A DNA stretch of 64,000 nucleotides, from the NCBI GenBank assembly GCA_964637115.1, contig CAZWVL010000004.1, forward strand, positions 9,879 through 73,878, given 5' to 3'. Positions 799 to 22,851 of the stretch are shown here, piece after piece. Made by a program: the position numbers and the translations under genes. Under the pieces are notes generated by a model, which saw only the letters and a program-made list of their open reading frames with translations, searched no databases and was not told the DNA's origin. The DNA is from an uncultured Methanosarcinales archaeon (lineage in GTDB: Archaea > Nanobdellota > Nanobdellia > Woesearchaeales > ARS49). Within the stretch, counting starts at the first letter, position 1. The number at the start of each line of letters is the position of its first letter.

Positions 799-1445
799 TG
801 TGCCAATTCTCTCACCATTTTTAGAGTTGCTCTTCTGTGTTCTTCTGTTTTCTGTATTAGCTTTTCGTTTTCCTTTTTTACAAAATCATAGAATTTTTCT
901 ACTGCACCATTATTGCATCTATGGCCGACAATAGTGACTGTGTCAATTTCAGTCCTAACACTATAATAATCATCTCGATATCCGATTTTAAAGGCAACTC
1001 CTTGCAGAGCTCCCATGAAAATGCCAGTATATTCTCTGTCAGCTCCACGCTTCCATGATTCATACCATTTATCGCATTTTTTTCCAAGATTGATGATGTT
1101 ATCAACACTTGTTTTTGCATCAATTTTGAGAATTTCCCACGCACGTCCGCGTGCTACCATTTCGTGTTTTATTTTTACAGAATGAAAGAAGGCTTCAATT
1201 TCAGTATTGCTCTTGTTTTCTTCATAGGTATCGCGTTCATACTTTCCTAGCTCTGTTTTTTCTAATCTTGCCGAAATTTTATAAACGAAGTGTTCCATCC
1301 AATTTGAAGGTGCTAAATCCGTCCTAAAATCTATTCCTTCGTAATTTCCCTCATAACGAAGGCCTTCACGTATGCGGCTTATCTTCCATTCTTTCACTTT
1401 ATTCCCAAGCTTCAGAAGTTCGTCTAAAGAGAGTTGGTCGGTCAT
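795..1445 (-). CDS. MTD-leader family protein, copy B (216 aa), function unknown
   Basis: It has the same 20-aa N-terminal leader followed by a divergent body. Its start overlaps the stop of the upstream SBP gene (ATGA). Confidence 0.55.
   Translation of the reverse strand: MTDQLSLDELLKLGNKVKEWKISRIREGLRYEGNYEGIDFRTDLAPSNWMEHFVYKISARLEKTELGKYERDTYEENKSNTEIEAFFHSVKIKHEMVARGRAWEILKIDAKTSVDNIINLGKKCDKWYESWKRGADREYTGIFMGALQGVAFKIGYRDDYYSVRTEIDTVTIVGHRCNNGAVEKFYDFVKKENEKLIQKTEEHRRATLKMVRELAQ
1383..1445 (-). repeat. conserved ~60-nt 5' cassette of the MTD-leader family (copy B)
   Basis: ccattctttcactttattcccaagcttcagaagttcgtctaaagagagttggtcggtcat. Confidence 0.6.
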
Positions 1446-2512
1446 CTGTACAACTCTTCGAATTTGCCATTCTTAACCTGCTTCATTACTTGTTCTTTCT
1501 GCGTAATTCTGCCATCATTGTCAAACGTGATAATGTTAGAAACGCCAGCATAGTCCTTGATTGAGTGCAAATACTGGGAAATCTCGTCTGGTGTTGTTTT
1601 TCCATCACGCAAAGCCGTAGCAACGAGCATAACTGCGTCATATGCATACGCTGCAGAAGGCGAAGGTGGCAATCCAAACTTCTCAGTGTATTTCTTTGCA
1701 AATTCTATTTCACCGGGTCCTTTCGCAGGATACGGATAAATTGTTCCTTCAATTGATGGATATGCTTGGAGAAGCACCGGATTATCAGTTCCAGAGCTTG
1801 AGTACAACGGAATCTTGAGTCCGAGCTCTTGTGCTTGTTTGCTGAATGCACCTTGGCTTGGATAGAACGCAAAAGGTGCGTACACCGCATTAACATTCAA
1901 TTCTTTAATTTGTGAAATCACTGTCTTGAAGTCAGTTTCATCTGGATTTGTTGGGAATTCCTTGACAATTGTCAGTCCTTTTGCTTCATTGACAAAGTTA
2001 TCACGCATTGACTGCGACCAGTCATTCAGACTGTAAACGATAGCTACTTTCTTTATGCCGTTTTTCTTCATATATTGTATTTCGGGCATCACTTCTGCCC
2101 GCTCCGTGATCCATACGTCAAAGAAATACGGCGATGGTTGTGGAACAACGCCTGCTGATGGTGATATAATCAGGACTTTTTTCTCGTTTGCAATAGGGCT
2201 TGCTACCTGGCCAAACCAGGTTGGTCCAACAACGACTTTAAGATTATCCACTTCAGCAAGTTTGTTGATTGCTGTAGCCGTACCCTTGAAATCAGTTTTA
2301 CTATCCTCAACAATTAACTCAAGAGGCCTTCCATTTATGCCGTTGTGAGCATTAATGTCATCAGCCGCCAGCAGTGCGCCGTTTTTCTCTCCTTCTCCCC
2401 AGAACGAAGCCGGGCCGGTGAGATGGAATACACCGCCTATTTTGACTGTGTCAGGAGTTGTTTGTATGCAGGCTGCGAGCAATAACAAAATGATAACTGC
2501 AATCTTTTTCAT
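1442..2512 (-). CDS. ABC transporter substrate-binding lipoprotein, LivJ/LivK (PBP type I) family
   Basis: N-terminus MKKIAVIILLLLAAC (signal plus lipobox Cys). It has the PBP1 signature GxxxPLTGPxAxxGE...DDINAxGGINGRP...ED. Confidence 0.85.
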   Translation of the reverse strand: MKKIAVIILLLLAACIQTTPDTVKIGGVFHLTGPASFWGEGEKNGALLAADDINAHNGINGRPLELIVEDSKTDFKGTATAINKLAEVDNLKVVVGPTWFGQVASPIANEKKVLIISPSAGVVPQPSPYFFDVWITERAEVMPEIQYMKKNGIKKVAIVYSLNDWSQSMRDNFVNEAKGLTIVKEFPTNPDETDFKTVISQIKELNVNAVYAPFAFYPSQGAFSKQAQELGLKIPLYSSSGTDNPVLLQAYPSIEGTIYPYPAKGPGEIEFAKKYTEKFGLPPSPSAAYAYDAVMLVATALRDGKTTPDEISQYLHSIKDYAGVSNIITFDNDGRITQKEQVMKQVKNGKFEELYR

Positions 2513-3636
2513 TTCTGCACCATCTCAAACTTGCCATCTTGCACAACTTTCAGCTTGAATCCAGTCTGAACATTGCCTTTTTCATCAAAGCTGAAATTTC
2601 CCATGAAGCCATCATAGTTCTTAACGTTGTTTAGCAGCCAATCATGCACTTTTTCGCCATCATTGCCAACTGCACGTATCGCATCAACCAAAATTCTGAC
2701 AGTGTCATATGTTGCTGCTGTGTGGAACGGCACTGCCGGGTCTTTTCCATAGCGTTCTTTGTACTTTGCAAGGAACGCTTTGAATTCAAGTTTGTCAGCG
2801 TCGTAATTTGGATCGTAGAAATACACGCCTTCAAGTGCATCGCCTGCTATTGTTTTTGAATTCTCATTGGCAACAGTCGTGAATGTGGTAAACATAGGCG
2901 TTTTAAAGCTGAGTTCGCGTGATTGTTTGATGAAGTGTGCTCCTGTTGTGCCTAGCTGGCTTAAAATCAGTATTGCATCTGGTTTTTCTCGTTTTACTTT
3001 CAAGAGTGTTGTTCTGAAGTCTTTTGTGTCTGGAATGAATTCTTCATCCAGAACTATTTCTCCGCCTAATTTTTCAAATTCTTTCTTGAAATGGTCGCGT
3101 ATGTCAATTGTGTACTCTCTTTGTTCCGTAATTATGGCTGCTTTGGTAAAATTAAACTTCTCGATAAAGTCACGCGCTGGCTGTATTCCAGCTTGTACAT
3201 CTGCATTTCCTGTTCTGAAGACGTATTCTCCTGCATTGTCAATATTGCTTCCGCCTGTAACGGGTGTGATATACACAACTTTTGCTTCATTGACGTATGG
3301 CGCAGCTGCCATTGTGTCGTCGCTGCACGTGCCGCCAATGATTACTTTGACATCATCTACTTCAACTAATTTCTTGATTGCTGTAAGGCCCTGATTTTGC
3401 CCGCATTTTGCATCTTCAACAACAAATTCAATATTCAAATCAGACGCGAGTTCTTCTGCTGCAAGTTTCGCACTATCCACAATATTCTGTCCAAGAGAAG
3501 CAAAATCTCCTGAAAGAATTGTTGAGATGCCGATTTTCATTAAGGGTTTTTCTACTGGTTTTGTTTCTGTTTGTATTTCTGGTTGTGCACACGCTGCCAA
3601 TAGTAACAGCATAATAATCGCAAATACTATTTTCAT
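2509..3636 (-). CDS. ABC transporter substrate-binding lipoprotein, LivK family (paralog 2)
   Basis: MKIVFAIIMLLLLAAC lipobox; contains KIGISTILSGDFASLG. The likely start is the internal ATG (ATGA overlap with the upstream stop); the tool ORF extends to 3678. Confidence 0.85.
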   Translation of the reverse strand: MKIVFAIIMLLLLAACAQPEIQTETKPVEKPLMKIGISTILSGDFASLGQNIVDSAKLAAEELASDLNIEFVVEDAKCGQNQGLTAIKKLVEVDDVKVIIGGTCSDDTMAAAPYVNEAKVVYITPVTGGSNIDNAGEYVFRTGNADVQAGIQPARDFIEKFNFTKAAIITEQREYTIDIRDHFKKEFEKLGGEIVLDEEFIPDTKDFRTTLLKVKREKPDAILILSQLGTTGAHFIKQSRELSFKTPMFTTFTTVANENSKTIAGDALEGVYFYDPNYDADKLEFKAFLAKYKERYGKDPAVPFHTAATYDTVRILVDAIRAVGNDGEKVHDWLLNNVKNYDGFMGNFSFDEKGNVQTGFKLKVVQDGKFEMVQK

Positions 3637-4046
3637 TTCCGCCCTTCTGCAATTAAGCATTCTTTTACATTCTTGCACAGTTCGTCAAGCTCCTCTTGAT
3701 TTTGCACAGCCATACTGCAAGTGTATGTGACCTTTACACAATCGGGTTCTCGATCTATCCACATTTCTTGAGAACGAGAAGTATTATGTCCTGCTTTTTC
3801 AAGGAAGATACGGCGGTTTCCAATCAGCAGGCATTCGTTAGCAAGTGCTTCTTCAAAATTTCGCTTGTTGATTACTCGATACATTCCGAGCGTTATGGAT
3901 CGGCGCTCGTCAAAATACAATAACTCAACATTATTATATGGTGTTGAAATTACAAAATGTTCATTAAAGTTATTATGGCGCTTTCCAACATTCTCCCACT
4001 TGCCCCAGAATTTTTCCATGCTTTTTTCAAGGTTGATTTCTGTCAT
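3633..4046 (-). CDS. hypothetical cytoplasmic protein (137 aa), paralog of 4043..4417
   Basis: ORF with no TM segment. It shares MTEI- at the N-terminus, a YxNVxEL core and a C-terminal LC+xxK...AE..RK with its neighbour. Confidence 0.45.
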   Translation of the reverse strand: MTEINLEKSMEKFWGKWENVGKRHNNFNEHFVISTPYNNVELLYFDERRSITLGMYRVINKRNFEEALANECLLIGNRRIFLEKAGHNTSRSQEMWIDREPDCVKVTYTCSMAVQNQEELDELCKNVKECLIAEGRK

Positions 4047-4417
4047 TTTCTTTCCTCCGCCATCACTTTTTTGATGTCTCTGCAGAGTTTTGTTAGGTAA
4101 GTTTGAGAAGAAACTTGAATGTGATACACATTCCTTAACCCACTACGATCATTAAATCCCATCGTATATAAGTTTCTGATATCATATCCACGTTTTCTAA
4201 GAACATTAATACGATCCAATTCCTTACCTAAATCATGTTTTTTAAATAGAACTATAACAGATAGTTCTAATTCTCTGACGTTATCATAGTAACAAATAGT
4301 TGTACGGGCGTTTATGTCATATGCACCAGATCCCTGAATATACCCATGGAAATGTTTCCTAAACACGTCCTTTATAGATTCGTCAAAGCTGATTTCTGTC
4401 ATCCCGTTTTTCTCCAC
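4043..4417 (-). CDS. hypothetical cytoplasmic protein (124 aa), paralog of 3633..4046
   Basis: Tandem paralog, 4-nt overlaps, embedded between SBP genes. Confidence 0.45.
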   Translation of the reverse strand: MEKNGMTEISFDESIKDVFRKHFHGYIQGSGAYDINARTTICYYDNVRELELSVIVLFKKHDLGKELDRINVLRKRGYDIRNLYTMGFNDRSGLRNVYHIQVSSQTYLTKLCRDIKKVMAEERK

Positions 4418-5487
4418 ATGCCGTTCTCAAATTTCGTCAACATGATCTCGCGGTCTATAATCTGATCACCATTATAGCTCACCACACCACTTACTCCGTT
4501 CATGGTCAAGTTGCGCATGTTGTTGGCAACACACAGTGTTTCCGTGCACCCTTCGTATGCTTTTGCCATTGTCATTGCGTCATCATACAATACTGCGCTT
4601 CCTCGCAAGAAATAAGCCTGCTTCTTGTCTTCCAGTTTTTTCTTGAACGAAACAAAAATAGGGTCAGTGCTCGCTTCATCAACTGCAATATCCGCGCCCA
4701 GAGCATCTTTCAGCACTTCTGGATAATCACGGCTGTTCTCAGAGCTTCCGCACCCAAAACTCTGGAAAGGTATTAGGATTTGAGCGGTAATTCCAAGCTC
4801 TTTTATCTGCTTATACGCGTTCGGGCAATCAGGTGCATACATTGCCAAGATGATAGCAGTGCTCCCTGAATTTTTTATCTTTGTGAATTGTGTTCTGAAA
4901 TCAATGCTTCCCTGATCGTACATCTCAGCTGCGGCAAGTTCGCCAATCTGCTCAACACCCTGCTTGCACAGCAGCGTAAACTCGGCATTTGTGCCGAACA
5001 GCGCAATTCGCTTGTTCTTAGCTTGCGTATACAATTTCTTGCACGCTTCAAAGCCGTCAAGCTGGTCTTTGAACACATAAGTTTTATTCGCTGAAAACGA
5101 ATTGACAACATTTACATAAATGAACGGCACTTTTGCATCTTCAGCTAATGGCGCTATAATGCCAGTGGGCATAACTGTGATGGTAAAAAGTGCATCGACG
5201 TTATCCACGTTGATTAGCTTCGCAGTCGCCGGTGCTACTTGCTTTTTATCGCTTGCAAAATCCTCATACAGCACTTCAACAGGCTTTCCGTTTATTCCAC
5301 CCGCGGCATTAATGTCTTCCACTGCTAGGTCTATTCCATATTTTGAAAACTCGCCATAAAACGCATTCGAGCCCGTTAATGGCAAAACTGCGCCGAATTT
5401 GTATGGTTTTATTTCAGCTTTTTCTACTTTAGCGCATGCTGATAGGAACAATAATGCTACAATTGTAAAGACCAAGAATTGTTTCAT
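4399..5487 (-). CDS. ABC transporter substrate-binding lipoprotein, LivK family (paralog 3)
   Basis: MKQFLVFTIVALLFLSAC lipobox; GAVLPLTGSNAFYGE; DINAAGGINGKPVEV. Confidence 0.85.
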   Translation of the reverse strand: MKQFLVFTIVALLFLSACAKVEKAEIKPYKFGAVLPLTGSNAFYGEFSKYGIDLAVEDINAAGGINGKPVEVLYEDFASDKKQVAPATAKLINVDNVDALFTITVMPTGIIAPLAEDAKVPFIYVNVVNSFSANKTYVFKDQLDGFEACKKLYTQAKNKRIALFGTNAEFTLLCKQGVEQIGELAAAEMYDQGSIDFRTQFTKIKNSGSTAIILAMYAPDCPNAYKQIKELGITAQILIPFQSFGCGSSENSRDYPEVLKDALGADIAVDEASTDPIFVSFKKKLEDKKQAYFLRGSAVLYDDAMTMAKAYEGCTETLCVANNMRNLTMNGVSGVVSYNGDQIIDREIMLTKFENGMWRKTG

Positions 5488-5489: not shown

Positions 5490-6566
5490 TTACTCTCCAG
5501 CAAACAATGTCTTTTTGCCGTTCTCAATCTTGTAAATCGGCACTGGTCTTGATGCGTCTCCGTTCGTATTAAAGTAAGAAGAACCTTGCAGCCATTGTCT
5601 TACTGTTTCAGTATCTGTCGTTCTTGTTTCTCTATAAGCCTGTGCTAACACCTTGACAGCCATATGAGCAGCGTCAGATGAAATGCCTGGCTCCTTGCCG
5701 TACTTTTCTGTGTACTTCTTTACGAATTCTTCATCGTATGGAAGCATGTCTATATAGTATGAAATCGCAAAATCATCTGTAGTAATCGCATTTCTTGTTA
5801 ATGCTTCACCAAAGTTGCCTTCTGCGTTGAGCAATATGGCATCAAACTGTTGCTCTTTCATTTTTTTTACTATGTGTGCGGTGTCAATCGGGCCAACTGC
5901 GAGAAAAACAACGTCTGGCTTGAGTGATTTTGCTTTGGTTACTTGTGTTGCGAAGTCATTGCCGTCAAATGCTGTGCCGACAAAGTCTGCAGTCAATTCT
6001 CCGCCGTTTTCTTTCATTAATCGTTCAAAATTTTCTTTGTATGAATCTGACCAGGACCCAGGGGCTCTGAAAATTACAGCATGCTTAATTTTTTCCTGTT
6101 TAATCACCAGTCTATACGCTCTGACATGATTTGGAACTGGTGGCCAGGTTCTGAATAAATACTGGCTTAAGCGGGAATTGTCTTTTGTATTTCCGGTTGA
6201 CGGGTTTATTAGTATTAATTTGGCAGCGTCAGCAATCGGAGCCATTGGTTCAAGCGAGTAGTCCCACGTACCGCCTATAATCGCGTCAATTTTGTCAATT
6301 TCCATCAGTTTTGTAAGTGCAGTAACCGCTCTTTTTCCGTCCGTGCCGTCGTCTTCGTAAATAACAACAATTTTCTTGCCATTTATGCCTCCTGCAGCAT
6401 TTATTTCTTCTACGGCAAGGTCCATTCCGTTTCTCGAGCTTTCACCATAGAATGCTGCAACGCCTGTTAAGCTCAAAACTGCGCCTATCTTGATTTGTTC
6501 GCTTTGCTGAGGCGTGCAAGCTGCTAAAAGCAGCAAAGCTGCTAAAAGAACAAAAAATCCTTTCAT
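5490..6566 (-). CDS. ABC transporter substrate-binding lipoprotein, LivK family (paralog 4)
   Basis: MKGFFVLLAALLLLAAC lipobox; IGAVLSLTGVAAFYGE; EINAAGGINGKKIVV. Start trimmed to the internal ATG. Confidence 0.85.
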   Translation of the reverse strand: MKGFFVLLAALLLLAACTPQQSEQIKIGAVLSLTGVAAFYGESSRNGMDLAVEEINAAGGINGKKIVVIYEDDGTDGKRAVTALTKLMEIDKIDAIIGGTWDYSLEPMAPIADAAKLILINPSTGNTKDNSRLSQYLFRTWPPVPNHVRAYRLVIKQEKIKHAVIFRAPGSWSDSYKENFERLMKENGGELTADFVGTAFDGNDFATQVTKAKSLKPDVVFLAVGPIDTAHIVKKMKEQQFDAILLNAEGNFGEALTRNAITTDDFAISYYIDMLPYDEEFVKKYTEKYGKEPGISSDAAHMAVKVLAQAYRETRTTDTETVRQWLQGSSYFNTNGDASRPVPIYKIENGKKTLFAGE

Positions 6567-6567: not shown

Positions 6568-7650
6568 TTAATCTTCCAGCGGAACAAATCCGCCATTCTT
6601 GACCTGCATCAGTATGAGCGGTCTGTCAACATCGCCTTTTGAATCAAAGCTGAACGTTCCGCTGACTCCATTGTAGTTCTGCGTTGCGTACAGCTGTTGT
6701 TTTATGCAGTCGGTATCATCGTTGCATTGCTCAACGATTTTTGATATCAATTTCAACGCATCATACGCATTGGCTACAAACCACGAGAAGTTCGGATCGT
6801 TGTACACGTTTGCATATTTCTGCTTGAATTCTTGTGCTTGCTGCGTGCCGGGATTAAATCCTGACGTGTAGACTATTCCTTCTCCTGCGCCTTGGGCAGC
6901 AGTTAAGAATGCTTTATCCTCCATTGCTGGTGTTGTCAAGAATGGTCCTGTATATCCCATTTCTCGGGCGATTTTCAGGTTAATCCCTATGTCTTTTGCA
7001 AATCCTGACGTATAGATGACTTCAGGTTTGGAATCGATTACTTTGCTAATCTGGGTGCGTGCATCGCCTGAGTCTTTGTCATATAGCTCTTGTGCGACAA
7101 GTGTTCCTCCTAATTCTTGGTAGCGTGTGGCAAATGGATTCGCATAAGCAAGCGGCCCTTCTGCATTTGCATTTAGCATTGCTGCTTTTTTCCAGCCTTT
7201 TGAAATGGCATATTCAGCCATTGTTTTGCCATGGCCAGTCGCTGTTTCACGGTTTCTGAATGTGTAATCGCCTGCATCGGTAATCTTTCCTGTAACTGCA
7301 GTTGAGCTCAAAATTATGACTTTCTTTTGTTCTGCAAGTGGCGCGACTGCAAGAACTGAGCCTGAAAGGACAGGGCCGATGATTATCTTCACTCCGTCAA
7401 CATCAGTGAGCTTGTTGAACGCAGTAACTGCTACTTTTGTGTCGCTCTGCTCATCTTCGAATATAACGTCGACGTTGCTGACTTCTTTGAGCGCGAGATT
7501 GATTCCTTTGGTAATTCCTTCTCCATAATTTCCTTGCGCGCCGGTTAACGTCAAAATAATGCCGACTTTGACTTTTTCTGTTGGTTGTTCAACTTGTACG
7601 CATGCGCCCAAAAGCAACAATGCTAATATGACAAAGATTATTTTTTTCAT
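6568..7650 (-). CDS. ABC transporter substrate-binding lipoprotein, LivK family (paralog 5, most diverged)
   Basis: MKKIIFVILALLLLGAC lipobox; VGIILTLTGAQGNYGE. Confidence 0.8.
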   Translation of the reverse strand: MKKIIFVILALLLLGACVQVEQPTEKVKVGIILTLTGAQGNYGEGITKGINLALKEVSNVDVIFEDEQSDTKVAVTAFNKLTDVDGVKIIIGPVLSGSVLAVAPLAEQKKVIILSSTAVTGKITDAGDYTFRNRETATGHGKTMAEYAISKGWKKAAMLNANAEGPLAYANPFATRYQELGGTLVAQELYDKDSGDARTQISKVIDSKPEVIYTSGFAKDIGINLKIAREMGYTGPFLTTPAMEDKAFLTAAQGAGEGIVYTSGFNPGTQQAQEFKQKYANVYNDPNFSWFVANAYDALKLISKIVEQCNDDTDCIKQQLYATQNYNGVSGTFSFDSKGDVDRPLILMQVKNGGFVPLED

Positions 7651-7651: not shown

Positions 7652-8770
7652 TTATACCTCCACGTTTACCCATTTACCTTCGTTGTACTGAACAATACGA
7701 ATGGGACGAGTGGCATAATGATTACCGTCGAATGCCACGTGTCCTGCAACACCAGTGTAATCGGTTTCTGCGAGCTTGTCGCGTACGCATTCCTTGGTTA
7801 TTTCAGTGCACTTGCCTGCCGCAATAGAAATCTCGTGCATATTATCATAGGCGACTGCTGCGTCTACAGGACCGACAAGTTTTTTGCCAATGCGTGTTTC
7901 AATTTTCTGCATAAATTCAGCGAGTTTTGGTGTTGGCTGTGCTGGGTTGGCTGCTTGGTCTGCGGCATAAGCGTCTTTGAGAATGCGGTTTTTGTCCAGG
8001 TCCTTGACTGCCATTGGGTTTGCAGATAATGCAGTGCCGATGGGCAGGTATAATTGTGGAACAAAGTCCAGCTCAAGCATTTGTTTGTAAATCATGTTGC
8101 AGTCTGGGGGCCAGCAGACAAGAACAACAGCATCTGGTTGTATGCTCTTGAACTTGGTGACAGAAGTTCGCGCATCAGGGTCATTGCTGAGCTTCATTTC
8201 ATTTGCAACAATAGTACCGCCCTTTGTGACAAATTCTTTTTTGAGTGTTTCAAGACAGTCTGCGCTGAAGTCAGCGTCATTTCCGAGGAAGGCAAGGCGT
8301 TTGTGGCCGTTTTTCAGTGCCGTTTGTCCTAATTGTTTGCATTCATTTGCAGCATCACGCAAATCGCTAAATATCCAGGTGTTCTTTCTCGCATAGGTTG
8401 GGACACCAGTAAACCCGAACAATGGGACTGCATTTTGTTCCGCTACTGCGCTTGCGCCGCCTGTAACAGGCGTTGTTATCGAATAGATAAAGTCGACGCC
8501 ATCCTGCTGTATTAGTTTTGTAGTCGCAGTAGTGCCTTTTGCAGCATTATCTGCATCTTCTAGAATGGTTTGAATCTGCCTGCCGTTGATGCCGCCTGCT
8601 GCATTGATTTCTTCCTTTGCCATTTCAAGGGCTGAAACGACATATTCGCCAATCCAGGCATTTGGCCCGGTCATGGGCGCCACAATGCCGACTTTGTATG
8701 GCTGTGATTCTGTTTGTACGCACGCTGCCAAAAGCAGCAGCGTCAAAATTATCATTATTGTTTGTTTCAT
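7652..8770 (-). CDS. ABC transporter substrate-binding lipoprotein, LivK family (paralog 6)
   Basis: MKQTIMIILTLLLLAAC lipobox; VGIVAPMTGPNAWIGE; EINAAGGINGRQIQ. Confidence 0.85.
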   Translation of the reverse strand: MKQTIMIILTLLLLAACVQTESQPYKVGIVAPMTGPNAWIGEYVVSALEMAKEEINAAGGINGRQIQTILEDADNAAKGTTATTKLIQQDGVDFIYSITTPVTGGASAVAEQNAVPLFGFTGVPTYARKNTWIFSDLRDAANECKQLGQTALKNGHKRLAFLGNDADFSADCLETLKKEFVTKGGTIVANEMKLSNDPDARTSVTKFKSIQPDAVVLVCWPPDCNMIYKQMLELDFVPQLYLPIGTALSANPMAVKDLDKNRILKDAYAADQAANPAQPTPKLAEFMQKIETRIGKKLVGPVDAAVAYDNMHEISIAAGKCTEITKECVRDKLAETDYTGVAGHVAFDGNHYATRPIRIVQYNEGKWVNVEV

Positions 8771-8779: not shown

Positions 8780-9820
8780 TCAAAACTCCTTCTTCCACTC
8801 GAGCATGACAGCATGGCTGTCATCCCAGTGATTTGTAATTGGATTTTCGTTCAGATCTGCTTTGTACCAGATACGCAATCCGCTGTTGCCGAGCTCAAAT
8901 CGTAAACCGAGCATTGCACCATTGGTATCAGTTGCAAAGTTTCTTCGATATTCGATGCTCGGCGTAATGTCATTCAAGAATGCAAAGTCACCTATGTTGA
9001 GTGCGCCGCGGATTGATGCTTTTTTATCATGGGTGTAGGTTGCATCAATGCCGTAATCTCCTGTATCTTTGTCTACATAAATTTCGGCGTTGCCGAAGCT
9101 GAATGTTTTGAAGGATAATGGGAATGTTAAATCGCCCAAGACGCTAAGGGTGTTATGGTCCTCGTCATCAACGCCGAACACTTTTGCACGTTGTGCCCAC
9201 TGCTTTGAGCCGAGAGTAATACGGGCTTCTCTGAAATCGTTTTTACCGATTTTAATGTAGCTCCAGAGTGCTGCACCGTCTAATTTCAAGCTGTATGAAG
9301 CGTTTGCTTCCCAGTTGTTTCCGTTGTTAATATGTCCACCGGCGTATACTAAAGAGTCTCCAATTTCTGCTGTTAGCACACCGCTGGAATTGCCTTTGCT
9401 GTCAAATGCTGCTTCTAAGCCGAAATTGTCATCAAGTTTTAATCCGCCGAGCCAGATTACTTTGTGTTCATTGTTTTCTCTGTCTAACACATCAAATTCC
9501 AGTCCTGCAAATCCTTGTTTGGTATTGTATGAGAGGTATGCTTTGCCTTGGTCTAATGTTGCAGTATCGCGCCAGCCGAGATTAAGCCTGAAATTATCAT
9601 AGTAAAGGTCTGCACCTATTGCGGAATTGTCCTTGGAAGTTTCACCCATGACTTTGTTTCCTGCATACGAAACAATAGTCTGAGCTGCTTCATCGTGCCA
9701 TGTTTCTGCGTATACGCGTGTTTCCATTTTGACTGGTTTCACGTCCTGCGCAAACGCTCCAGTATAGAGCGCCAGCGCGGAGAGTGATGTCATCACTGCA
9801 TGTTTGAGTCTCTGTAACAT
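8780..9820 (-). CDS. secreted beta-rich protein with bacterial outer-membrane beta-barrel (porin-like) character
   Basis: Signal peptide MLQRLKHAVMTSLSALALYTGAFA|QD. About 320 aa of alternating-hydrophobic amphipathic strands with G, Y, N and D in the turns. The C-terminus is ...AVMLEWKKEF (terminal aromatic). It is the first gene of the minus-strand SBP operon. The tool ORF uses GTG at 9829. Confidence 0.5.
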   Translation of the reverse strand: MLQRLKHAVMTSLSALALYTGAFAQDVKPVKMETRVYAETWHDEAAQTIVSYAGNKVMGETSKDNSAIGADLYYDNFRLNLGWRDTATLDQGKAYLSYNTKQGFAGLEFDVLDRENNEHKVIWLGGLKLDDNFGLEAAFDSKGNSSGVLTAEIGDSLVYAGGHINNGNNWEANASYSLKLDGAALWSYIKIGKNDFREARITLGSKQWAQRAKVFGVDDEDHNTLSVLGDLTFPLSFKTFSFGNAEIYVDKDTGDYGIDATYTHDKKASIRGALNIGDFAFLNDITPSIEYRRNFATDTNGAMLGLRFELGNSGLRIWYKADLNENPITNHWDDSHAVMLEWKKEF

Positions 9821-9880
9821 TTCCACCACCTATGTTCAGTAGTGACATGAAACTAATTTATACTTTTTTATTAAACTATA

Positions 9881-9892: not shown

Positions 9893-9948
9893 AAGTATAA
9901 GTATTAAAGAAAAGGTTTAAATATAAGCCATTGCATCGACGATGTAAT

Positions 9949-15648: not shown

Positions 15649-16537
15649 GCGTTTGCCCCATCATTCTTACTATTAATTCTGTCATCTCCCGCAAAAAGCG
15701 CAGGACATATGTCTCCTTTGCCGATTTAGTGCTGTTTAGTTTTCTATCGATTTCAAAAGCAATGCTGTCACGCTCTTTTGCGAGTGCAGCTGCTGCTTCA
15801 TACGAGAATTCATAGAATAATCCTTCAAATTTCTTGAAAAGGCGCTGTATTCGGTCATAGAGGGCAATTACCGATGATTCTAATACAACCTTGTTTTTGG
15901 TGATATAGCCGGTCAGCAGCTTGTATTCGTCGCCAAGCTGCTCAAGAAGCATAACAACAGCATACATGACTGGAGTCTTCGAATATTCCGGATACCCATA
16001 TTTGTTTAGAATACGAAAACAATGGTCCGTTACCCTGTTTATGTTGGCTTCCATATCCTCAAGATAGGCGAGGTCTGTTTCTTTTCGTTTTAAGGTTTGA
16101 AGGCTTTCGTCAGCTACGGCGCTTATCATGAAAAATACCCGCCGAAGTATTGGGTCGAATGCGTTTTCAGACACACCCGAAATATCTTTGATGATAAGAT
16201 AATTTTTGCCTTGCTGGATTACTTCCATTCCTATCATTTCCCTGACGCGCTGCTGAATGAGTCTTGCCTTGTTTAACGAGTCAAACTTCACTTCCAGTTC
16301 ATCAACGCCTTCCAAGTATTTTGCAGCAACAATTCTTTTGAGCAAATTGTCAAGCTTGCTTAGATCAATGGTCTCCCGCATATGCTTGGGAACGGTTGGC
16401 GGGGTCATTACAAGCGTCGTATCTTTCTCTTCCAGTTCTATTTCATCACCCGCTTTCAGATTAAGCTTCTTTGTCCACTTGGCAGGCAGTGAAATAGTCA
16501 GTGTTGCCGCTCCCTGCTTGATTATCTTGCGTCGCAT
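15635..16537 (-). CDS. AbrB/SpoVT-domain plus PhoU-like domain regulator (paralog 2 of 3)
   Basis: MRRKIIKQGAATLTISLPAKWTKKLNLKAGDEIELEE. Its 3' end overlaps the convergent APH-like kinase by 14 nt. The tool start at 16558 is TTG. Confidence 0.6.
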   Translation of the reverse strand: MRRKIIKQGAATLTISLPAKWTKKLNLKAGDEIELEEKDTTLVMTPPTVPKHMRETIDLSKLDNLLKRIVAAKYLEGVDELEVKFDSLNKARLIQQRVREMIGMEVIQQGKNYLIIKDISGVSENAFDPILRRVFFMISAVADESLQTLKRKETDLAYLEDMEANINRVTDHCFRILNKYGYPEYSKTPVMYAVVMLLEQLGDEYKLLTGYITKNKVVLESSVIALYDRIQRLFKKFEGLFYEFSYEAAAALAKERDSIAFEIDRKLNSTKSAKETYVLRFLREMTELIVRMMGQTLTLA

Positions 16538-16594
16538 ATCGTCGATAGTCGCTTTCAAGTATATAAATTTTGCCTTTAGAATATAAGAATATGC

Positions 16595-16608: not shown

Positions 16609-16674
16609 TATGAAAAAAGAATATATTTCCGATAAGTTGTCACTTGTAGAGTAAGACAAGATTTGGGTGGTAAA

Positions 16675-17094
16675 ATGAACAAAAGAAACGATAACGGTCA
16701 TGTCAAATATTCACCGGATGCTTCATTAGTTAACAAGCTCAAGGTTGGAGATCATTATACTGAGATTTGGCAAGGTTTGCCCGATCACCCATTCGAGCCT
16801 TCTGCAACAACAGGTGGCAAGTCAGGCTTAAAGTATGAAACAAATGATAAATACGTCTGGGTTACGCCAAATACTGCTCGTGCACTGGAACAAAATCCGG
16901 ATGAAATTCTGTATGCCAGTATTAAGAAATCTAAAGACAAAGAGTATTGCGCCAGATGGGTAGAATCCATCAGCGGAACTTCCTTTGGAAATACTCTTGA
17001 AAGTGCTATTTCTCGAGCTCAAGAACTGAATATCGAAGAGTTACATAACAGAATCGAGAAGGATCGAAGAAAGAAATTGGAGGCCAAAAAATGA
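16675..17094 (+). CDS. hypothetical protein (~139 aa) leading the plus-strand SBP operon
   Basis: ORF whose stop overlaps the ATG of the following SBP gene (ATGA). The tool start is TTG at 16663. Confidence 0.4.
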   Translation: MNKRNDNGHVKYSPDASLVNKLKVGDHYTEIWQGLPDHPFEPSATTGGKSGLKYETNDKYVWVTPNTARALEQNPDEILYASIKKSKDKEYCARWVESISGTSFGNTLESAISRAQELNIEELHNRIEKDRRKKLEAKK

Positions 17095-18176
17095 AAACAG
17101 CAATAATTGCAATTCTAGTGCTGTTTCTAGCAGCATGCGTGCAAATAGAAGAAACAAAGCCATTCAAATTAGGTGCACCACTGCCTTTGACTGGCTCAAA
17201 TGCGTTCTATGGCGACTTTACAAAGTATGGTATAGAGCTTGCTGTTGAAGACATTAACAAAGCAGGCGGAATCAATGGTAGAACAGTCCAGGTTATCTAT
17301 GAAGATACTGCTGGAGATAAGACAAAAGCCACAACCGCGGCACAGAAGCTGATTCACATCGATGGTGTGGACGCTCTTATTACCTCCACGACTCCGATGA
17401 GCGGTGCGATTTCTCCGGTTGCTGAAGAGAACCGCATTCCGTTAATTTATGCTTCTGCAACAAATTCATTCACTATAAACAAAACGTATGTTTTCAAAGA
17501 TTATACAGATGCAGCCGGCATCTGTGAGCTTCTGATGAAACAGGTGAAAAAGGATGGGCATGAAAAAGTGGCCGTCTTTGGTACTGATGCTGAATTTACT
17601 CAGCTTTGTAAGAAAGGAGCAGAAAAAGTTGGAAAACTCAACTCATTTGAGGTTTATCCTGGCGGCGAAACTGATTTCAAAACACAGTTTGCCAAGATTA
17701 AGAATGCTGAAAACACTGCTTTGATTCTTTCGGTGTTCGCTGGAGATTGCCCGCATGCGTACAAGCAGATTCGCGAACTTGGGTTGAAGGCAAAATTGTA
17801 CACAGCTTTCCAGAGTTTTGCGTGCGGCAGTGCCGACAACACAAAAGCAAATGCCGACTTGCTTGAGGGCGCATATGGTGCTGATGTTGCTTTAGATGAA
17901 GAAAGCGATGATCCTGATTTTCTCGCTTTTAAGAAGCGCCTTGATGAAAGAGGCTGGACTACGCAAATTCGCGGAAGCGCCATTATGTACGATAGCACAA
18001 TGGAATTCGCAAAAGCCTTCCAGGATTGCCAAGATGCTCTTTGTGTAGCCAATAATCTCAGAGCTCTGCAGATGAATGGAATTTCTGGACACATCAGTTA
18101 TGGTGGAGACCAGATTGTTGAGCGCGAAATAATGTTGGTGAAATACGAAAACGGCAAATGGAGGAAAGTACAATGA
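17091..18176 (+). CDS. ABC transporter substrate-binding lipoprotein, LivK family (paralog 7)
   Basis: MKTAIIAILVLFLAAC lipobox; LGAPLPLTGSNAFYGD; DINKAGGINGRTVQV. It is the closest paralog to 4399..5487. Confidence 0.85.
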   Translation: MKTAIIAILVLFLAACVQIEETKPFKLGAPLPLTGSNAFYGDFTKYGIELAVEDINKAGGINGRTVQVIYEDTAGDKTKATTAAQKLIHIDGVDALITSTTPMSGAISPVAEENRIPLIYASATNSFTINKTYVFKDYTDAAGICELLMKQVKKDGHEKVAVFGTDAEFTQLCKKGAEKVGKLNSFEVYPGGETDFKTQFAKIKNAENTALILSVFAGDCPHAYKQIRELGLKAKLYTAFQSFACGSADNTKANADLLEGAYGADVALDEESDDPDFLAFKKRLDERGWTTQIRGSAIMYDSTMEFAKAFQDCQDALCVANNLRALQMNGISGHISYGGDQIVEREIMLVKYENGKWRKVQ

Positions 18177-19267
18177 AAACGGCAATATTCACAATAATTG
18201 CATTGCTGCTTTTGGCAGCGTGCGCAACGCAAGAATCAGTACAAACAACGCCTATTGCAAAAGAACCGGCAGTTGTCAAGATTGGGGTAACAGTGCCATT
18301 GACTGGTGATGTTGCATTCTTAGGAGAAGCAACGCGAAATTCCCTCGAATTGGCATTAAAAGAAGTGCAGGGAACAAAATACAAGTACGAGCTTGTGTTT
18401 GAAGATGACAAGCTTGATGCAAAACTGGCTTCCACAACTGCAACTAAATTGATTCAAGTTGACAATGTTGATGCAATCATCAGTTTGAGCTCTGGCACGG
18501 GGAATGTAGTTACCCCTCTTGCCGAGCAGAATAAGGTAATTCACTTTGGCATTGCTTCTGATGCAAATGTTGCAAAAGGAATGTTCAATTTCATCCATTG
18601 GACGCCGCCTGATGAGGAAGCTCGTTTATGGGTGCAAAAAGCACAGGAACATGGCTATAATCGCGTCGCAATTATTGTATTGCAGCATCCAGGTGCAATA
18701 GCAGTGGTTGATGCTGCAAAGAAACACGCAAAAGGTACCGACATCGAACTACATGAGGAGTTCTTTAATCCGGGCGAGAAGGATTTCAGAACAGTTCTGG
18801 TCAGGTCCAAGCAATTTAATCCTGATGCTTATATGCTCATGGCGTTCTCTCCTGAACTTGACATATTGCACAAGCAGTTGAAGGAATTAGGCATTAAGGC
18901 ACCTTTGACATCCATCGAGGCATTCGAACTTAGCAATGACCCTTCTCAGTTTGAAGGTCACTGGTATGTCAACGCTGCAGACCCGACAGGCGCATTTGCT
19001 GACAAGTATAAGGCTGCGTACAACAAAGAGCCGGTATTTGGCGGACCAAATGCATACGACATCTTCAAGATGATCGTGAAAGGCTTTGAGGATTCAGGCA
19101 AAGATGCATCTGTAAAACCTTCACCTGAAGAAGTTGCTGCTGCACTTATGCAGATAAAGGACTTCGATGGTGCACTGGGCAAATTGACTGTCGGCGAAGA
19201 TGGTATTGTCTGGAGCCCGGCAGTTGTCAGAACGATTCTGAACGGCAAGCCGGTGACTATCAAATAG
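18173..19267 (+). CDS. ABC transporter substrate-binding lipoprotein, LivK family (paralog 8)
   Basis: MKTAIFTIIALLLLAAC lipobox; IGVTVPLTGDVAFLGE. ATGA overlap with the preceding SBP gene. Confidence 0.85.
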   Translation: MKTAIFTIIALLLLAACATQESVQTTPIAKEPAVVKIGVTVPLTGDVAFLGEATRNSLELALKEVQGTKYKYELVFEDDKLDAKLASTTATKLIQVDNVDAIISLSSGTGNVVTPLAEQNKVIHFGIASDANVAKGMFNFIHWTPPDEEARLWVQKAQEHGYNRVAIIVLQHPGAIAVVDAAKKHAKGTDIELHEEFFNPGEKDFRTVLVRSKQFNPDAYMLMAFSPELDILHKQLKELGIKAPLTSIEAFELSNDPSQFEGHWYVNAADPTGAFADKYKAAYNKEPVFGGPNAYDIFKMIVKGFEDSGKDASVKPSPEEVAAALMQIKDFDGALGKLTVGEDGIVWSPAVVRTILNGKPVTIK

Positions 19268-19292: not shown

Positions 19293-19679
19293 ATGACTGA
19301 CGAACTTTCTTTGGAAGAAGTAATTGCTTTGGGATGTAAAGTAAGACCATGGAGCAAGAACAAAGACGAAGAAGATGAAGATGGCTATGTCGGTTGTTAC
19401 AAAGGAGTTCATATAAGCGTTTCCCGTCATCGATTGTTTATTGGAGAAGACTCTTTTGTATCATACAATCTGAAGATTGAATATAAAGGCACAACAATAG
19501 GAGAATTTTTTTATCAGGCGTTTGACCATTCATCTGCAAGAAATAGAGATGATGTTATGAAGTTCTATAAATTTGCCAAGTCACAAAATGAACAAGAATA
19601 TATCGCAAGGGTATGTGATCGTAACAGAGAAAAGCGATTTGAAGGAACCGTGAACTATGTGCGTGGTTTGTTAAAATAA
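19293..19679 (+). CDS. MTD-leader family protein, copy D (128 aa)
   Basis: MTDELSLEEVIALGCKVRPW. The same N-terminal leader family as 358..1445, with a diverged nucleotide sequence. It lies between the last SBP gene and livH. Confidence 0.5.
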   Translation: MTDELSLEEVIALGCKVRPWSKNKDEEDEDGYVGCYKGVHISVSRHRLFIGEDSFVSYNLKIEYKGTTIGEFFYQAFDHSSARNRDDVMKFYKFAKSQNEQEYIARVCDRNREKRFEGTVNYVRGLLK

Positions 19680-19725: not shown

Positions 19726-20598
19726 ATGGGCATCGCAACGCAGTTAATATTGAACGGTATCATTGCGGGCGCCATATACGCGTTGGTTGCGTCTGGGTTC
19801 TCATTAATCTACTCTGTTACCAAATTTATGCATTTGGCGCACGGTGGAGTGTTGGCGTTAGGCGCCTATCTTATGTACACTTTCGCTGTTGCAAGTGGAT
19901 TGAACTTCTGGTTTGCCATTCTGCTGACATTAATCTGCAGCAGCGTTGCAGGAGAATTGATGAATTGGTTGGTCTACAAGCCTTTGAGAAAACGTAAGGC
20001 TTCTGGTGCAGTATTATTAATAGCAAGCATTGCTGTATTAATATTCGTTAACTCGTTGATTCTCGCCGTCTGGGGTGCTGATGTGAAGACCATTCACACC
20101 AGAAACCCTGTTTTTGACTTTATTGGTGCCAGAATCACTTTTATTCAAGTCACAATCATTATTGTCTCTGTAATTCTTCTTTTATGCTTGTGGTATTTGA
20201 TGAAAAAAACAAAATTGGGCAAGGCAATGCGTGCTGTTGCTGACAACAAGGATGTTGCGCAGACTGTTGGCATTAATCCAGAGAGAATTTACACATATAC
20301 TTTCCTTATTGGCAGTTTTTTGGCTGGTGTTGCCGGAATTCTTATTGGAATCGAACAGAATTTGTTTCCAACAATGGGCCTTTCATTAGTTATTAAGGGA
20401 TTTACTGGTGCAGTTATTGGCTCTTTGGCATCTGTTCCTGGCGCAGTATTGGGCTCATTCATTCTTGGTCTGGTGGAAAACATCGGCATCTGGTGGCTTC
20501 CGTCTGGTTACAAGGATGCAATTGCCTTCGTATTATTGTTCATTTTCCTCTTATTCAGGCCTTCCGGCCTATTGGGCGTTAAAGTGAGGGAGGCTTAA
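19726..20598 (+). CDS. livH: branched-chain amino acid ABC transporter permease (LivH-like)
   Basis: Polytopic membrane protein with LivH/BPD-transport-2 topology. It sits in the operon order permease, permease, ATPase, ATPase. Confidence 0.85.
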   Translation: MGIATQLILNGIIAGAIYALVASGFSLIYSVTKFMHLAHGGVLALGAYLMYTFAVASGLNFWFAILLTLICSSVAGELMNWLVYKPLRKRKASGAVLLIASIAVLIFVNSLILAVWGADVKTIHTRNPVFDFIGARITFIQVTIIIVSVILLLCLWYLMKKTKLGKAMRAVADNKDVAQTVGINPERIYTYTFLIGSFLAGVAGILIGIEQNLFPTMGLSLVIKGFTGAVIGSLASVPGAVLGSFILGLVENIGIWWLPSGYKDAIAFVLLFIFLLFRPSGLLGVKVREA

Positions 20599-21455
20599 TG
20601 GCATTTGTAAATTATCTGATTCATCTTGGAATTTTGGCGGCAATTTATAGTATTCTCACAATTAGTTTGAACTGGGCTGTTGGTTTTACTGGCTTGCTTA
20701 ATCTTGGCCATGTTGGATTTTTTGGTATCGGCGCTTATGTGAGCGCTCTATTAGCTATTAATGGTGTCCCTGTCTGGATTAGTATTATTATTGGCGGTCT
20801 TGCAGGCTTGATTGCTGGTTTCTTGCTTTCCCTGCCTACTTCAAGGTTGAAAGGTGATTATCTTGCTCTGGCAACGCTTGGTTTTTCGTTTATCATGGGA
20901 AGTATTGCAAGAAACTGGACTGATGTTACAAGAGGCGCGTTAGGTATTCCTGGCATTCCTAAGATTGTGAGAGGTAATACAGAGTTTCTCGTCGTTGTTT
21001 TGATTGTTGCAGTTATTACTTATTTCATCTTCTGGAAATTATCGCGTTCAAGATTTGGAAAGACGTGTGAAGCAGTTAGAGATGACGAATTGGCTGCAAG
21101 AATGCTTGGAAAAAATACTTTTATGACGAAAATTATGGCTTTGGGCATTAGTGCGTTTTTTGCCGGCATTGCTGGAGGTTTATTTGCGCATTACATTACT
21201 TTTATCGACCCGTCTATTTTCGGTATTGATGACTTGATTTTACTTTTCAGCATGTTGATTGTGGGCGGTCTTGCCAGTGTGAAAGGCGCTGCTTTCGGCA
21301 CGATTATTATTTTCTTGATTCCTGAGCCTTTGCGCTTTATCGGCTTCCCCAGTTCTGTGCTTGGTCCAATGCGTGCAATTATCTACGCGTTAATCTTGTT
21401 ATTAATCCTTATCTATAAGCCAAGAGGCTTATTTGGGAAGGTGGATTTGGCATGA
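20598..21455 (+). CDS. livM: branched-chain amino acid ABC transporter permease (LivM-like)
   Basis: Second polytopic permease; ATGA-style overlap with the previous gene. Confidence 0.85.
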   Translation: MAFVNYLIHLGILAAIYSILTISLNWAVGFTGLLNLGHVGFFGIGAYVSALLAINGVPVWISIIIGGLAGLIAGFLLSLPTSRLKGDYLALATLGFSFIMGSIARNWTDVTRGALGIPGIPKIVRGNTEFLVVVLIVAVITYFIFWKLSRSRFGKTCEAVRDDELAARMLGKNTFMTKIMALGISAFFAGIAGGLFAHYITFIDPSIFGIDDLILLFSMLIVGGLASVKGAAFGTIIIFLIPEPLRFIGFPSSVLGPMRAIIYALILLLILIYKPRGLFGKVDLA

Positions 21456-22135
21456 TTAGCGTGCAAAAATTGGACAAACATTTTGGTGGAGTTTATGCAG
21501 TTCATAATTGCAGCTTCACAGTTAAAGACAATACAATCACGAGTATTATCGGCCCGAACGGCGCCGGTAAAACAACGTTGTTCAATCTTATCTGTGGCAT
21601 TATCAAGCCGGATGCTGGCAGCATTTTCTTGAAGGGCCAGGAGATTACTGACCTTCCAACATACCGCATTGCTCGTTCTGGTATTAGCAGAACGTTCCAA
21701 CAGGCAAGATTGTTCAAAAATATGTCAGTAAAGGACAATTTGTTGTTAGCAAAGCAGACAACCGATGCAGAATTAAAGGAAATACTAAAAAAAGTGCGTT
21801 TTCCTCTTGATATAAACACAAAAGCAAGCGAACTGAGCTACGGCCAAACGAGATTAGTGGAAATTGCTAGAGCATTACTTAAACCTCACAAATTATTAAT
21901 GCTTGACGAGCCTACTGCTGGCGTGAATCCAAAAGTCCGCCAGGAATTGAAAGAAATTCTTCTAAATCTCAAAAAGGAAGGCAATACTATTGTGCTGATC
22001 GAGCACGATATGGAATTCGTGATGAGTATTAGTGATGATGTTATTGTGATGACAGAAGGTACTGTGTTGACAAGAGGAACGCCTAAACAAGTTCAATCTG
22101 ACAAGCGTGTTTTGGAGGCATATCTAGGCAAATGA
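21452..22135 (+). CDS. livG: ABC transporter ATP-binding protein (LivG-like)
   Basis: Walker A GPNGAGKTT, signature LSYGQTRLVEIARAL, Walker B LLMLDEP. Confidence 0.85.
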   Translation: MISVQKLDKHFGGVYAVHNCSFTVKDNTITSIIGPNGAGKTTLFNLICGIIKPDAGSIFLKGQEITDLPTYRIARSGISRTFQQARLFKNMSVKDNLLLAKQTTDAELKEILKKVRFPLDINTKASELSYGQTRLVEIARALLKPHKLLMLDEPTAGVNPKVRQELKEILLNLKKEGNTIVLIEHDMEFVMSISDDVIVMTEGTVLTRGTPKQVQSDKRVLEAYLGK

Positions 22136-22851
22136 GCTTCCTTACTGTGAAGAATTTGGAATCCGGATATGGAAAATTGCAGATTTTGTTTGGCGTAAAT
22201 ATGGACATTAAGCCGGACGAGATTACGGTCATTATTGGCCCTAATGGTGCAGGTAAGAGCACTGTGCTGAAGAGTATTTTCAAGTTGAATGACATTTACA
22301 GCGGCCAAATAATCTACAAGGGCAAGGATATTACTAACTTGCCAACTTACGAGCGTATTCAGATGGGCATTTCTATTGTGCCACAGGGCAGGCAAGTGTT
22401 TTCAGGTCTTACAATCAAAGAAAATTTGGAAATGGGCGCTTTTATGACAAAAGATAAAGACTTGATTCAGAAGCGCATGGATGAAGTTCTGTCTCATTTC
22501 CCTGCTCTTAAAGAAAAACTGCATCAAAATGCTTATAGTTTGTCCGGCGGCCAGCAACAGATGCTCGCTATTGCAAGAGGATTGATGCAAGACCCTCAAG
22601 TTCTTCTGCTAGACGAACCTTCTTTAGGTCTGGCACCTAAGACTATGAAGGAAATATTCGAAAAAATCCAGGAAATCAACAAAGAAGGCACTGCCATCAT
22701 CATGGTCGAGCAGAATGCCAAGGCAGCGTGTGAGATTGCCGACCATATTTACGTTCTAGAAGAAGGCAGAGTTGCCTTGCACGGTGACAAGAAAATAATG
22801 AAATCAGAAAAAATCAAGCATATTTATCTTGGCGGGCACGGGCATAAATAA
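22132..22851 (+). CDS. livF: ABC transporter ATP-binding protein (LivF-like)
   Basis: Walker A GPNGAGKST, signature LSGGQQQMLAIARGL, Walker B LLLDEPS. Confidence 0.85.
   Translation: MSFLTVKNLESGYGKLQILFGVNMDIKPDEITVIIGPNGAGKSTVLKSIFKLNDIYSGQIIYKGKDITNLPTYERIQMGISIVPQGRQVFSGLTIKENLEMGAFMTKDKDLIQKRMDEVLSHFPALKEKLHQNAYSLSGGQQQMLAIARGLMQDPQVLLLDEPSLGLAPKTMKEIFEKIQEINKEGTAIIMVEQNAKAACEIADHIYVLEEGRVALHGDKKIMKSEKIKHIYLGGHGHK

Follow-up and report, generated by a model that had tools for sequence, protein, structure and literature searches.

Several substrate-binding proteins (SBPs) can be served by a single ATP-binding cassette (ABC) translocator, as in Escherichia coli, where LivJ and LivK share LivHMGF, and multi-receptor ABC importers also include the Cbc choline/betaine/carnitine system with its orphan SBPs and the OppA1-5 system of Borrelia; a 2010 article by Thomas, 'Homes for the orphans', is said to review the cases of several SBPs per translocator. 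In Rhizobium leguminosarum the orphan BraC3 uses BraDEFG alongside BraC and has a different specificity, as was shown experimentally (PMC2978685). Paralogues of the COG0683 LivK family in Rhodopseudomonas palustris bind aromatic acids, fatty acids and dicarboxylates, and labels that call members of this family 'branched-chain amino acid' binders cannot be relied on (PMC3223731). We describe here a locus within a 64-kb stretch of archaeal DNA (contig CAZWVL010000004.1, positions 9,879 to 73,878, referred to below as the window) in which an array of LivK-type SBP genes, eight of them inside the window and ten when the full locus is counted, accompanies one set of livHMGF genes. The best reading of this arrangement, to which we assign a probability of about 0.68, is that these are differentiated receptors feeding one HAAT importer. 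The principle of many receptors for one transporter is already known, and what is new is how many receptors there are, the lineage of the host and how variable the array is; no new transport principle is involved.

The DNA examined consists of the window and 3.9 kb to its left. The initial annotation had claimed one permease pair and one ATPase pair at this locus, and the presence of a single LivH, LivM, LivG and LivF was confirmed, as follows.

19726..20598, plus strand: LivH-type permease (BPD_transp_2, PF02653, E 7e-47), with eight hydrophobic segments
20598..21455, plus strand: LivM-type permease (BPD_transp_2, PF02653, E 2e-45)
21452..22135, plus strand: LivG-type ATPase (ABC_tran E 3.5e-36, BCA_ABC_TP_C E 1.4e-7)
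22132..22851, plus strand: LivF-type ATPase (ABC_tran E 1e-34)

Walker A, signature and Walker B motifs can be read from the translations of the ATPases. LivM is a short version without the long N-terminal extension of its E. coli counterpart, and its match to the NCBIfam LivM model starts at about position 112 and scores below the curated cut-off. Because two BPD_transp_2 subunits are found together with two ATPases, one of them with a BCA_ABC_TP_C domain, and with Peripla_BP_6 SBPs, the predicted product of the locus is a HAAT-family ABC importer of the Liv/Bra/Urt type (TC 3.A.1.4). With LivH and LivM of the window as BLASTP queries, no second Liv permease pair was found in the 64 kb, and the one other ABC system in the window is an ABC-2 exporter pair at 30487-33359.

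Eight SBP genes had been proposed, six on the minus strand and two on the plus strand, and Peripla_BP_6 is indeed matched by eight open reading frames (ORFs) in this arrangement, with Pfam E values of 1e-36 to 2e-58; all eight also match the ANF_receptor model. No further SBP was found in the 64 kb, either by tblastn with all eight proteins or with the family hidden Markov model.

1442..2512, minus strand: SBP1, 356 residues, lipobox LLAAC (Pfam E 1.8e-57)
2509..3636 (maximal ORF to 3678), minus strand: SBP2, clade G2, 375 residues from an internal ATG (Pfam E 3.6e-55)
4399..5487, minus strand: SBP3, clade G3/7, 362 residues, lipobox FLSAC (Pfam E 1.4e-35)
5490..6566 (maximal ORF to 6596), minus strand: SBP4, 358 residues from an internal ATG (Pfam E 9.3e-56)
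6568..7650, minus strand: SBP5, clade G5, 360 residues, lipobox LLGAC (Pfam E 1.3e-51)
7652..8770, minus strand: SBP6, clade G6/9, 372 residues (Pfam E 1.4e-48), with SBP9 as its closest paralogue
17091..18176, plus strand: SBP7, clade G3/7, 361 residues, lipobox FLAAC (Pfam E 2.6e-51)
18158..19267, plus strand: SBP8, clade G8, 369 residues, or 364 residues from the ATG at 18173 (Pfam E 8e-41)

The true starts of SBP2, SBP4 and SBP8 are likely the internal ATGs at 3636, 6566 and 18173, which we prefer because gene calls on independent contigs match them; for SBP2, a 375-residue gene call on other contigs agrees with the start at 3636, and SBP4 is likewise called with 358 residues.

The count of eight stands inside the window, although for the locus as a whole it becomes ten. 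The minus arm continues past the window's left edge, and a 4.2-kb contig from a public run (L012; related contigs and loci are given L numbers here) is 100% identical to window positions 1-329 and carries in its left part two complete SBP genes (SBP9 and SBP10), followed by a class II aminoacyl-tRNA synthetase. We count ten SBPs in the locus because L012 both overlaps the window end and carries these two genes. A 5.2-kb JGI contig (L005), 99.96% identical to window positions 1-4467, runs on into a convergent Peripla_BP_6 gene, of which it covers the C-terminal 236 residues (L005:4519-5229), and provides an independent view of SBP9.

L012:1529-3840, immediately left of window position 1, plus strand: SBP9 and SBP10 together, lipobox-bearing members of the Peripla_BP_6 family, convergent with the minus arm and next to the aminoacyl-tRNA synthetase gene
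outside the window, plus strand: SBP9, 371 residues, lipobox FLVAC, clade G6/9
outside the window, plus strand: SBP10, 383 residues, lipobox FLVAC, clade G10a

The locus is bounded by the class II aminoacyl-tRNA synthetase gene on its left and by an RFC large-subunit gene (23056-24438) on its right, with the ten SBP genes, all intact, between them; the SBP array occupies about 11 kb, and the ratio of SBPs to translocator sets is 8:1 for the window alone and 10:1 for the complete locus. The genes form three units. The minus-strand unit has 12 genes and no permease, and each gene directly adjoins the next or overlaps it by 4 nt, as would be expected of a single operon; the plus-strand unit has eight genes with livHMGF at its end; and the third unit, left of the window, has two (SBP10 and SBP9). 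The aminoacyl-tRNA synthetase gene is the same boundary in relatives, and is 86% identical in the nearest species-representative genome, L004 (CAZCCU010000001.1), which has about 80-87% identity across the locus.

The initial annotation had ascribed an LLAAC-type lipobox to all eight SBPs of the window, and in each of them a few charged residues are indeed followed by a hydrophobic signal peptide that closes with a lipobox, which reads LLAAC in five of the eight and FLSAC, LLGAC and FLAAC in SBP3, SBP5 and SBP7 respectively. The motif is found in one other ORF among 257 six-frame ORFs, where it lies inside a membrane segment. The strict archaeal lipoprotein consensus, [L/V/I][A/S/T/V/I][G/A/S]C (PMC12462473), fits nine of the ten SBPs, the remaining one being SBP5 with a G at position -2. 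Proteins with an archaeal lipobox and lipidation enzymes of the AliA family have been reported for DPANN archaea (PMC12462473), and we infer that the SBPs are lipidated at the lipobox cysteine.

A phylogeny, which had been suggested as a check, places the ten SBPs in about eight old lineages. The neighbour-joining tree contains the ten locus SBPs and 33 sequences from relatives, with LivJ as outgroup and 100 bootstraps, and the eight lineages are G2, G3/7 (SBP3 and SBP7), G5, G6/9 (SBP6 and SBP9), G8, G10, SBP1 and SBP4. Six clades (G2, G5, G6/9, G3/7, G8 and G10a, the last containing SBP10) have bootstrap values of 96-100, with 100 for G2, and the G3/7 and G6/9 clades (96-100) join the locus pairs to orthologues in other genomes. 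SBP1 has no clear orthologue in the sampled relatives, its clade with candidate relatives having a bootstrap value of 13/100, and for SBP4 there is no orthologue among them. Pairs of SBPs within the window are 26-35% identical except for SBP3 and SBP7, which are 55% identical as proteins, and the closest pair of all is SBP6 and SBP9 with about 70% (71% by BLASTP over 353 residues and 69.7% over the full alignment). Synonymous sites (dS) are saturated for both of these pairs, and exclusive sister relationships are seen in 2 of 100 bootstraps for SBP3 with SBP7 and in 17 of 100 for SBP6 with SBP9. SBP3 and SBP7 had been described as very similar and as a possible recent duplication, a proposal that we reject given their 55% identity, the saturated dS and their non-sister placement.

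All of the SBPs were aligned with E. coli LivJ, using a LivJ sequence identical to that of PDB 1Z15, and we take the ligand-contact residues from the LivJ and LivK structures to be 18, 77-79, 100-102, 121, 150, 202, 226 and 276. The pocket-equivalent columns are almost invariant inside clades across genomes and different at most positions between clades, such that they read Y-V-L-S-T-A-V-A-G-F-P-A-F in G5 and I-T-T-P-T-A/G-V-A/I-F-W-I/V-G-D in G6/9. In this alignment the LivJ signature (C78-S79, S/A100-A101-T/S102, D121 and D/E226) is kept by the SBP10 clade only, and SBP10 is the most LivJ-like of the ten (32% identity); SBP1 to SBP9 do not show, in this sequence-based alignment, most of the residues with which LivJ holds the amino-acid backbone (Ser79, Ala100-Thr102, Tyr202 and Glu226). 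Only the SBP10 clade looks like a classical Leu/Ile/Val-type amino-acid binder.

The ratio of nonsynonymous to synonymous substitution (dN/dS) between the window and L004 is 0.11 for SBP2, 0.09 for SBP5, 0.06 for LivH and 0.12 for LivM; selection on the SBP orthologues is purifying, as it is on the permease genes. The SBPs are maintained genes with clade-specific predicted pockets. The earlier suggestion of broadened or differentiated ligand specificity is supported in that the paralogues look functionally differentiated, given their pocket columns and the purifying selection on them. The best PDB matches of the SBPs are HAAT SBPs, and their closest relatives of known structure include binders of amino acids as well as of aromatic acids; SBP4 is best matched by 4nqr, an Anabaena HAAT amino-acid binder (E 1.7e-24), and the PDB relatives of SBP2, SBP5 and SBP6 include R. 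palustris LivK-family proteins. Naming substrates for SBP2, SBP4, SBP5 and SBP6 by PDB sequence search was tried and given up, as it returned only generic HAAT relatives with mixed ligands.

Related loci were found by scanning JGI metagenomes with LivH as six peptide patterns, a search that finds mainly close relatives, and this yielded 30 loci; the survey used here is of 22 loci of at least 9 kb, drawn from those 30 plus other related contigs, with the window excluded. The livH gene never occurs more than once in the 22 surveyed loci, and livM is present wherever the contig reaches far enough. The number of SBP genes within 10 kb ranges from 0 to 6, and the window locus, with its ten, is the highest. 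The description of the repertoire as unusually large is therefore well founded (ten versus 0-6 in 22 related loci), although what is unusual is the number and the host lineage, not the principle. The genomic slot gains and loses SBP genes in this lineage. One SBP gene lies in two overlapping frames at L035:5661-6726, an APH-like gene is split into parts of 480 and 250 residues at L001:2856-5051, and short SBP fragments are present at L036:9350-9994; these split and fragmented copies are signs of continuing decay and turnover in the slot.

The positions of the orthologues bear indirectly on whether the SBPs of the minus arm, which lie apart from the permease genes, are partners of this importer. 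Orthologues of SBP2, SBP5, SBP6/9, SBP7, SBP8 and SBP10 are found on the same strand upstream of livHMGF in relatives, several of them 4-55 nt from livH. Thus an SBP6/9-type gene is 19 nt upstream of livH in L018, an SBP5-type gene is 34 nt upstream of it in L020, L035 has an SBP2-type gene in the same orientation 2 kb upstream, and an SBP10-type gene overlaps the livH start in L026. The SBP2 orthologue in L004 has 84.7% identity over the full alignment, those of SBP5 in L004, L018 and L020 have 66-84%, that of SBP8 in the L029 array has 82%, and those of SBP7, within the livH-upstream arrays of L018 and L029, have 54-60%. We tie the 'orphan' SBPs of the minus arm to this importer because their orthologues sit in the livHMGF operons of relatives, and this shuffling of gene order is the best available argument that the clades, with the exception of SBP1 and SBP4, would serve LivHMGF.

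The host, an uncultured archaeon, is most likely a small-genome DPANN member of a Woesearchaeota- or Nanoarchaeia-like kind. Among the products encoded in the window are archaeal proteins of replication and recombination as well as aminoacyl-tRNA synthetases (RFC was detected by Pfam, and RadA and valyl-tRNA synthetase were recognized from the translations), and the named homologues of SBP9 are labelled Candidatus Nanoarchaeia, Woesearchaeota and Nanoarchaeota. We also note that the L004 record is labelled 'uncultured Methanosarcinales archaeon', at odds with the Woesearchaeota, Nanoarchaeia and Nanoarchaeota labels of the SBP homologues, and this label may be wrong. Related contigs of 875 kb and 784 kb, each with one LivH-like match in the limited pattern scan, suggest that the genomes are small.

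In the reading that we favour, each SBP would be exported and probably attached outside the cytoplasmic membrane through its lipobox cysteine, would capture its own class of small solute, and would hand this to the same LivHM channel, with uptake driven by ATP hydrolysis at LivG and LivF. One translocator would then serve a widened range of imported compounds, because the ten SBPs represent about eight old clades with different pocket residues. Several considerations weigh on the other side. We infer both the docking of all ten SBPs on LivHM and the distinctness of their ligands, and we found no solved structure of a Liv permease (a LivM relative) that could be used for a docking model. The pocket comparison is a sequence alignment at 25-35% identity to LivJ, made without structures, and none of the SBPs reaches an NCBIfam equivalog cut-off, which bars substrate assignment (scores for LivJ/K, NF011933, and UrtA, TIGR03407 and TIGR03669, are 25-113 bits against cut-offs of 477-495). 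The permease count covers only 64 kb plus 3.9 kb of the genome, SBP1 and SBP4 are without an orthologue in any sampled livHMGF operon, and seven co-operonic genes have no known function.

Between the two arms of the array lie genes for kinases and putative regulators.

9931..10860, plus strand: AbrB/SpoVT-domain protein of about 300 residues (Pfam MazE_antitoxin/AbrB E 6e-7), divergent from the minus arm
10806..12566, minus strand: Ser/Thr protein kinase, 586 residues (Pfam Pkinase E 3e-32)
13453..15648, plus strand: APH-family kinase-like protein, 731 residues (Pfam APH E 7.6e-11)
15635..16558, minus strand: second AbrB/SpoVT-domain protein (Pfam E 6e-9), divergent from the plus SBP-LivHMGF arm and kept in this position in relatives

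The product of 9931-10860 has 90% identity in L004, where it occupies the same divergent position, and it is a candidate arm-specific regulator. A third AbrB/SpoVT paralogue of about 300 residues is encoded at 61317-62219 on the plus strand. A PhoU-like label for these proteins was considered and dropped, as Pfam detects the AbrB/SpoVT domain only. The Ser/Thr kinase has one moderately hydrophobic segment at residues 333-351, and the pair of the APH-like kinase and the AbrB-type protein is kept upstream of SBP arrays in L018, L020, L025 and L035. A possible regulatory or sensing link of the kinases and AbrB-type proteins to the two arms is plausible.

Interspersed with the SBP genes are several orphan ORFs.

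1 or before to 361 (runs off the window), minus strand: smallA0
358..798, minus strand: smallA1
795..1445, minus strand: smallA2, forming with smallA0 and smallA1 the tail of the minus arm, with 4-nt overlaps
3633..4046, minus strand: smallB1, orphan ORF between SBP3 and SBP2
4043..4417, minus strand: smallB2, orphan ORF between SBP3 and SBP2
8780..9829, minus strand: first gene of the minus arm, a beta-rich orphan, secreted, with an AFA|QD-type signal peptide and the C-terminal sequence ...EWKKEF
16663..17094, plus strand: smallC, orphan ORF heading the plus arm and overlapping the SBP7 start by 4 nt
19293..19679, plus strand: smallA3, between SBP8 and livH, of a cytoplasmic protein family of about 120 residues

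The 8780-9829 product has no Pfam match even at E <= 5 and none in NCBIfam or PHROGs, and has only five homologues among 5.8 billion proteins; its AlphaFold2 model is of low confidence (pLDDT 43) and has about 20 beta strands. The position ahead of the SBP genes is also occupied in L004. The predicted product is reminiscent of bacterial outer-membrane barrels, and a porin reading was considered and not adopted. For smallC there is no family match in Pfam, NCBIfam or PHROGs, and BLASTP finds a match at the same array-head position in L020 and L021. The smallB1 and smallB2 ORFs are called as genes on independent contigs; neither has a Pfam or PHROGs match, and smallB2 has one NCBIfam match far below the cut-off.

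The smallA proteins share the N-terminus MTDxLSLDELLKLGKKVxxW, have a member in L004 (L004:16019-16321), and include one product, that of smallA2 (795-1445), in which the domain occurs twice. Only 23 representatives of this family, none of them annotated, came out of a profile search across 1.84 billion proteins, and the family is lineage-restricted; Foldseek against the PDB gave no match with E below 0.4 (AlphaFold2 pLDDT 72, one of five models). The first 63 nt of the smallA genes (300-362, 737-799 and 1384-1446) are 89-95% identical in DNA and the remaining protein is 35-40% identical, and this likeness of the 5' ends suggests that the coupled starts have undergone gene conversion or are constrained at the nucleotide level. 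Neither Rfam families nor tRNAs were detected in the window. Further along, 52119-57254 on the minus strand holds seven small to mid-sized genes; at the N-terminus of their products a few charged residues precede a hydrophobic segment, which makes them look like pilin-like or surface proteins of archaea.

These observations allow other explanations of the array to be weighed. The SBPs could be served in part by other Liv-type sets elsewhere in the genome, which would make the 10:1 ratio an artefact of viewing one locus; only 64 kb plus 3.9 kb of the genome was examined, the LivH scan used six peptide patterns and found mainly close relatives, and orphan SBPs that work with distant permease genes are common (PMC3223731). 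However, there is a single LivH-like match on each of the related 875, 784, 251, 167, 156 and 110 kb contigs, the surveyed loci pair several SBPs with one LivHMGF, and the minus-arm orthologues lie inside livHMGF operons of relatives; near-genome-size contigs of less than 0.9 Mb would also leave little space for extra ABC systems, and we consider this explanation unlikely. That the array instead represents redundancy, dosage or surface variation, with host-contact lipoproteins or drifting copies and not different ligands, is in keeping with a copy number that varies from 0 to 10 between close relatives and with the split or frameshifted copies seen in some of them (e.g. L035:5661-6726). We find it very improbable given that all ten genes are intact, that apart from two pairs the paralogues are only 26-35% identical and hence are not dosage copies, and that clade-specific pocket residues are kept across genomes with a dN/dS of about 0.1.

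SBP-dependent sensor kinases and the use of the PBP1/ANF-receptor fold in signalling proteins are precedents for a role in sensing, and some of the SBPs could be sensors that signal to the neighbouring Ser/Thr and APH-like kinases and AbrB-type regulators. The ANF_receptor model is matched by all eight SBPs of the window, the pair of APH-like kinase and AbrB-type genes is kept directly upstream of SBP arrays in several relatives, and each kinase has one moderately hydrophobic segment that possibly spans the membrane. These segments are weak, however, with a hydropathy of 1.5-1.6, the SBPs are stand-alone lipoproteins in livHMGF operons or orthologous to genes in them, and we know of no such interaction for these kinase families, so that signalling by these proteins seems to us unlikely. 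A more encompassing view would take the entire interval from the aminoacyl-tRNA synthetase gene to the RFC gene as an integrated, fast-evolving island for nutrient scavenging and sensing, combining a ten-receptor antenna for one importer, the lineage-restricted secreted beta-rich protein ahead of the orphan arm, the small cytoplasmic proteins with translational coupling to the receptors, two membrane-associated kinases and arm-specific AbrB-type regulators, with some receptors doubling as sensors and the orphan proteins acting as new accessory components of uptake; this is speculative, and we would be surprised to see it hold as a whole.

We therefore return to differentiated receptors that feed one importer. 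DPANN archaea have very small genomes from which many biosynthetic pathways are missing, and few recognisable transporters are usually ascribed to them. The array points to a broad uptake of free solutes as one of the ways in which they obtain their building blocks. About 11 kb for ten receptors corresponds to roughly 1% of a genome of less than 1 Mb, a size judged from the related contigs, and the lineage reshuffles the SBP array between close relatives. The locus also offers a compact set of proteins suited to ligand screening, and it warns against a literal reading of 'branched-chain amino acid transporter' annotations. The literature on multi-copy livK arrays and DPANN Liv systems yielded passing mentions only.

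The system that we describe resembles LIV-I/LS of E. coli in having two BPD_transp_2 permeases, two ATPases (LivG with BCA_ABC_TP_C), Peripla_BP_6 SBPs, and more than one SBP per translocator, although it differs in having ten SBPs instead of two, and in that these are predicted to be lipid-anchored in an archaeon whereas those of E. coli are free in the periplasm. The SBPs here are also only 26-35% identical to one another, where the E value between LivJ and LivK of E. coli is about 1e-183, and the LivJ pocket residues are found here only in the SBP10 clade. The Bra system of R. leguminosarum is likewise a HAAT importer, there with an extra SBP encoded apart from the permease genes, but it is bacterial and has two SBPs, whereas the ten of this locus are clustered around the permease operon instead of scattered. 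The Cbc and OppA systems likewise broaden their substrate range through several differentiated SBPs, but belong to other ABC families and hosts, and ten SBPs is at the upper end for one locus. The expanded LivK-family repertoire is shared with R. palustris, which has a large genome, is free-living and carries many permease sets, while here the host is an archaeon with a small genome and the locus holds a single set.

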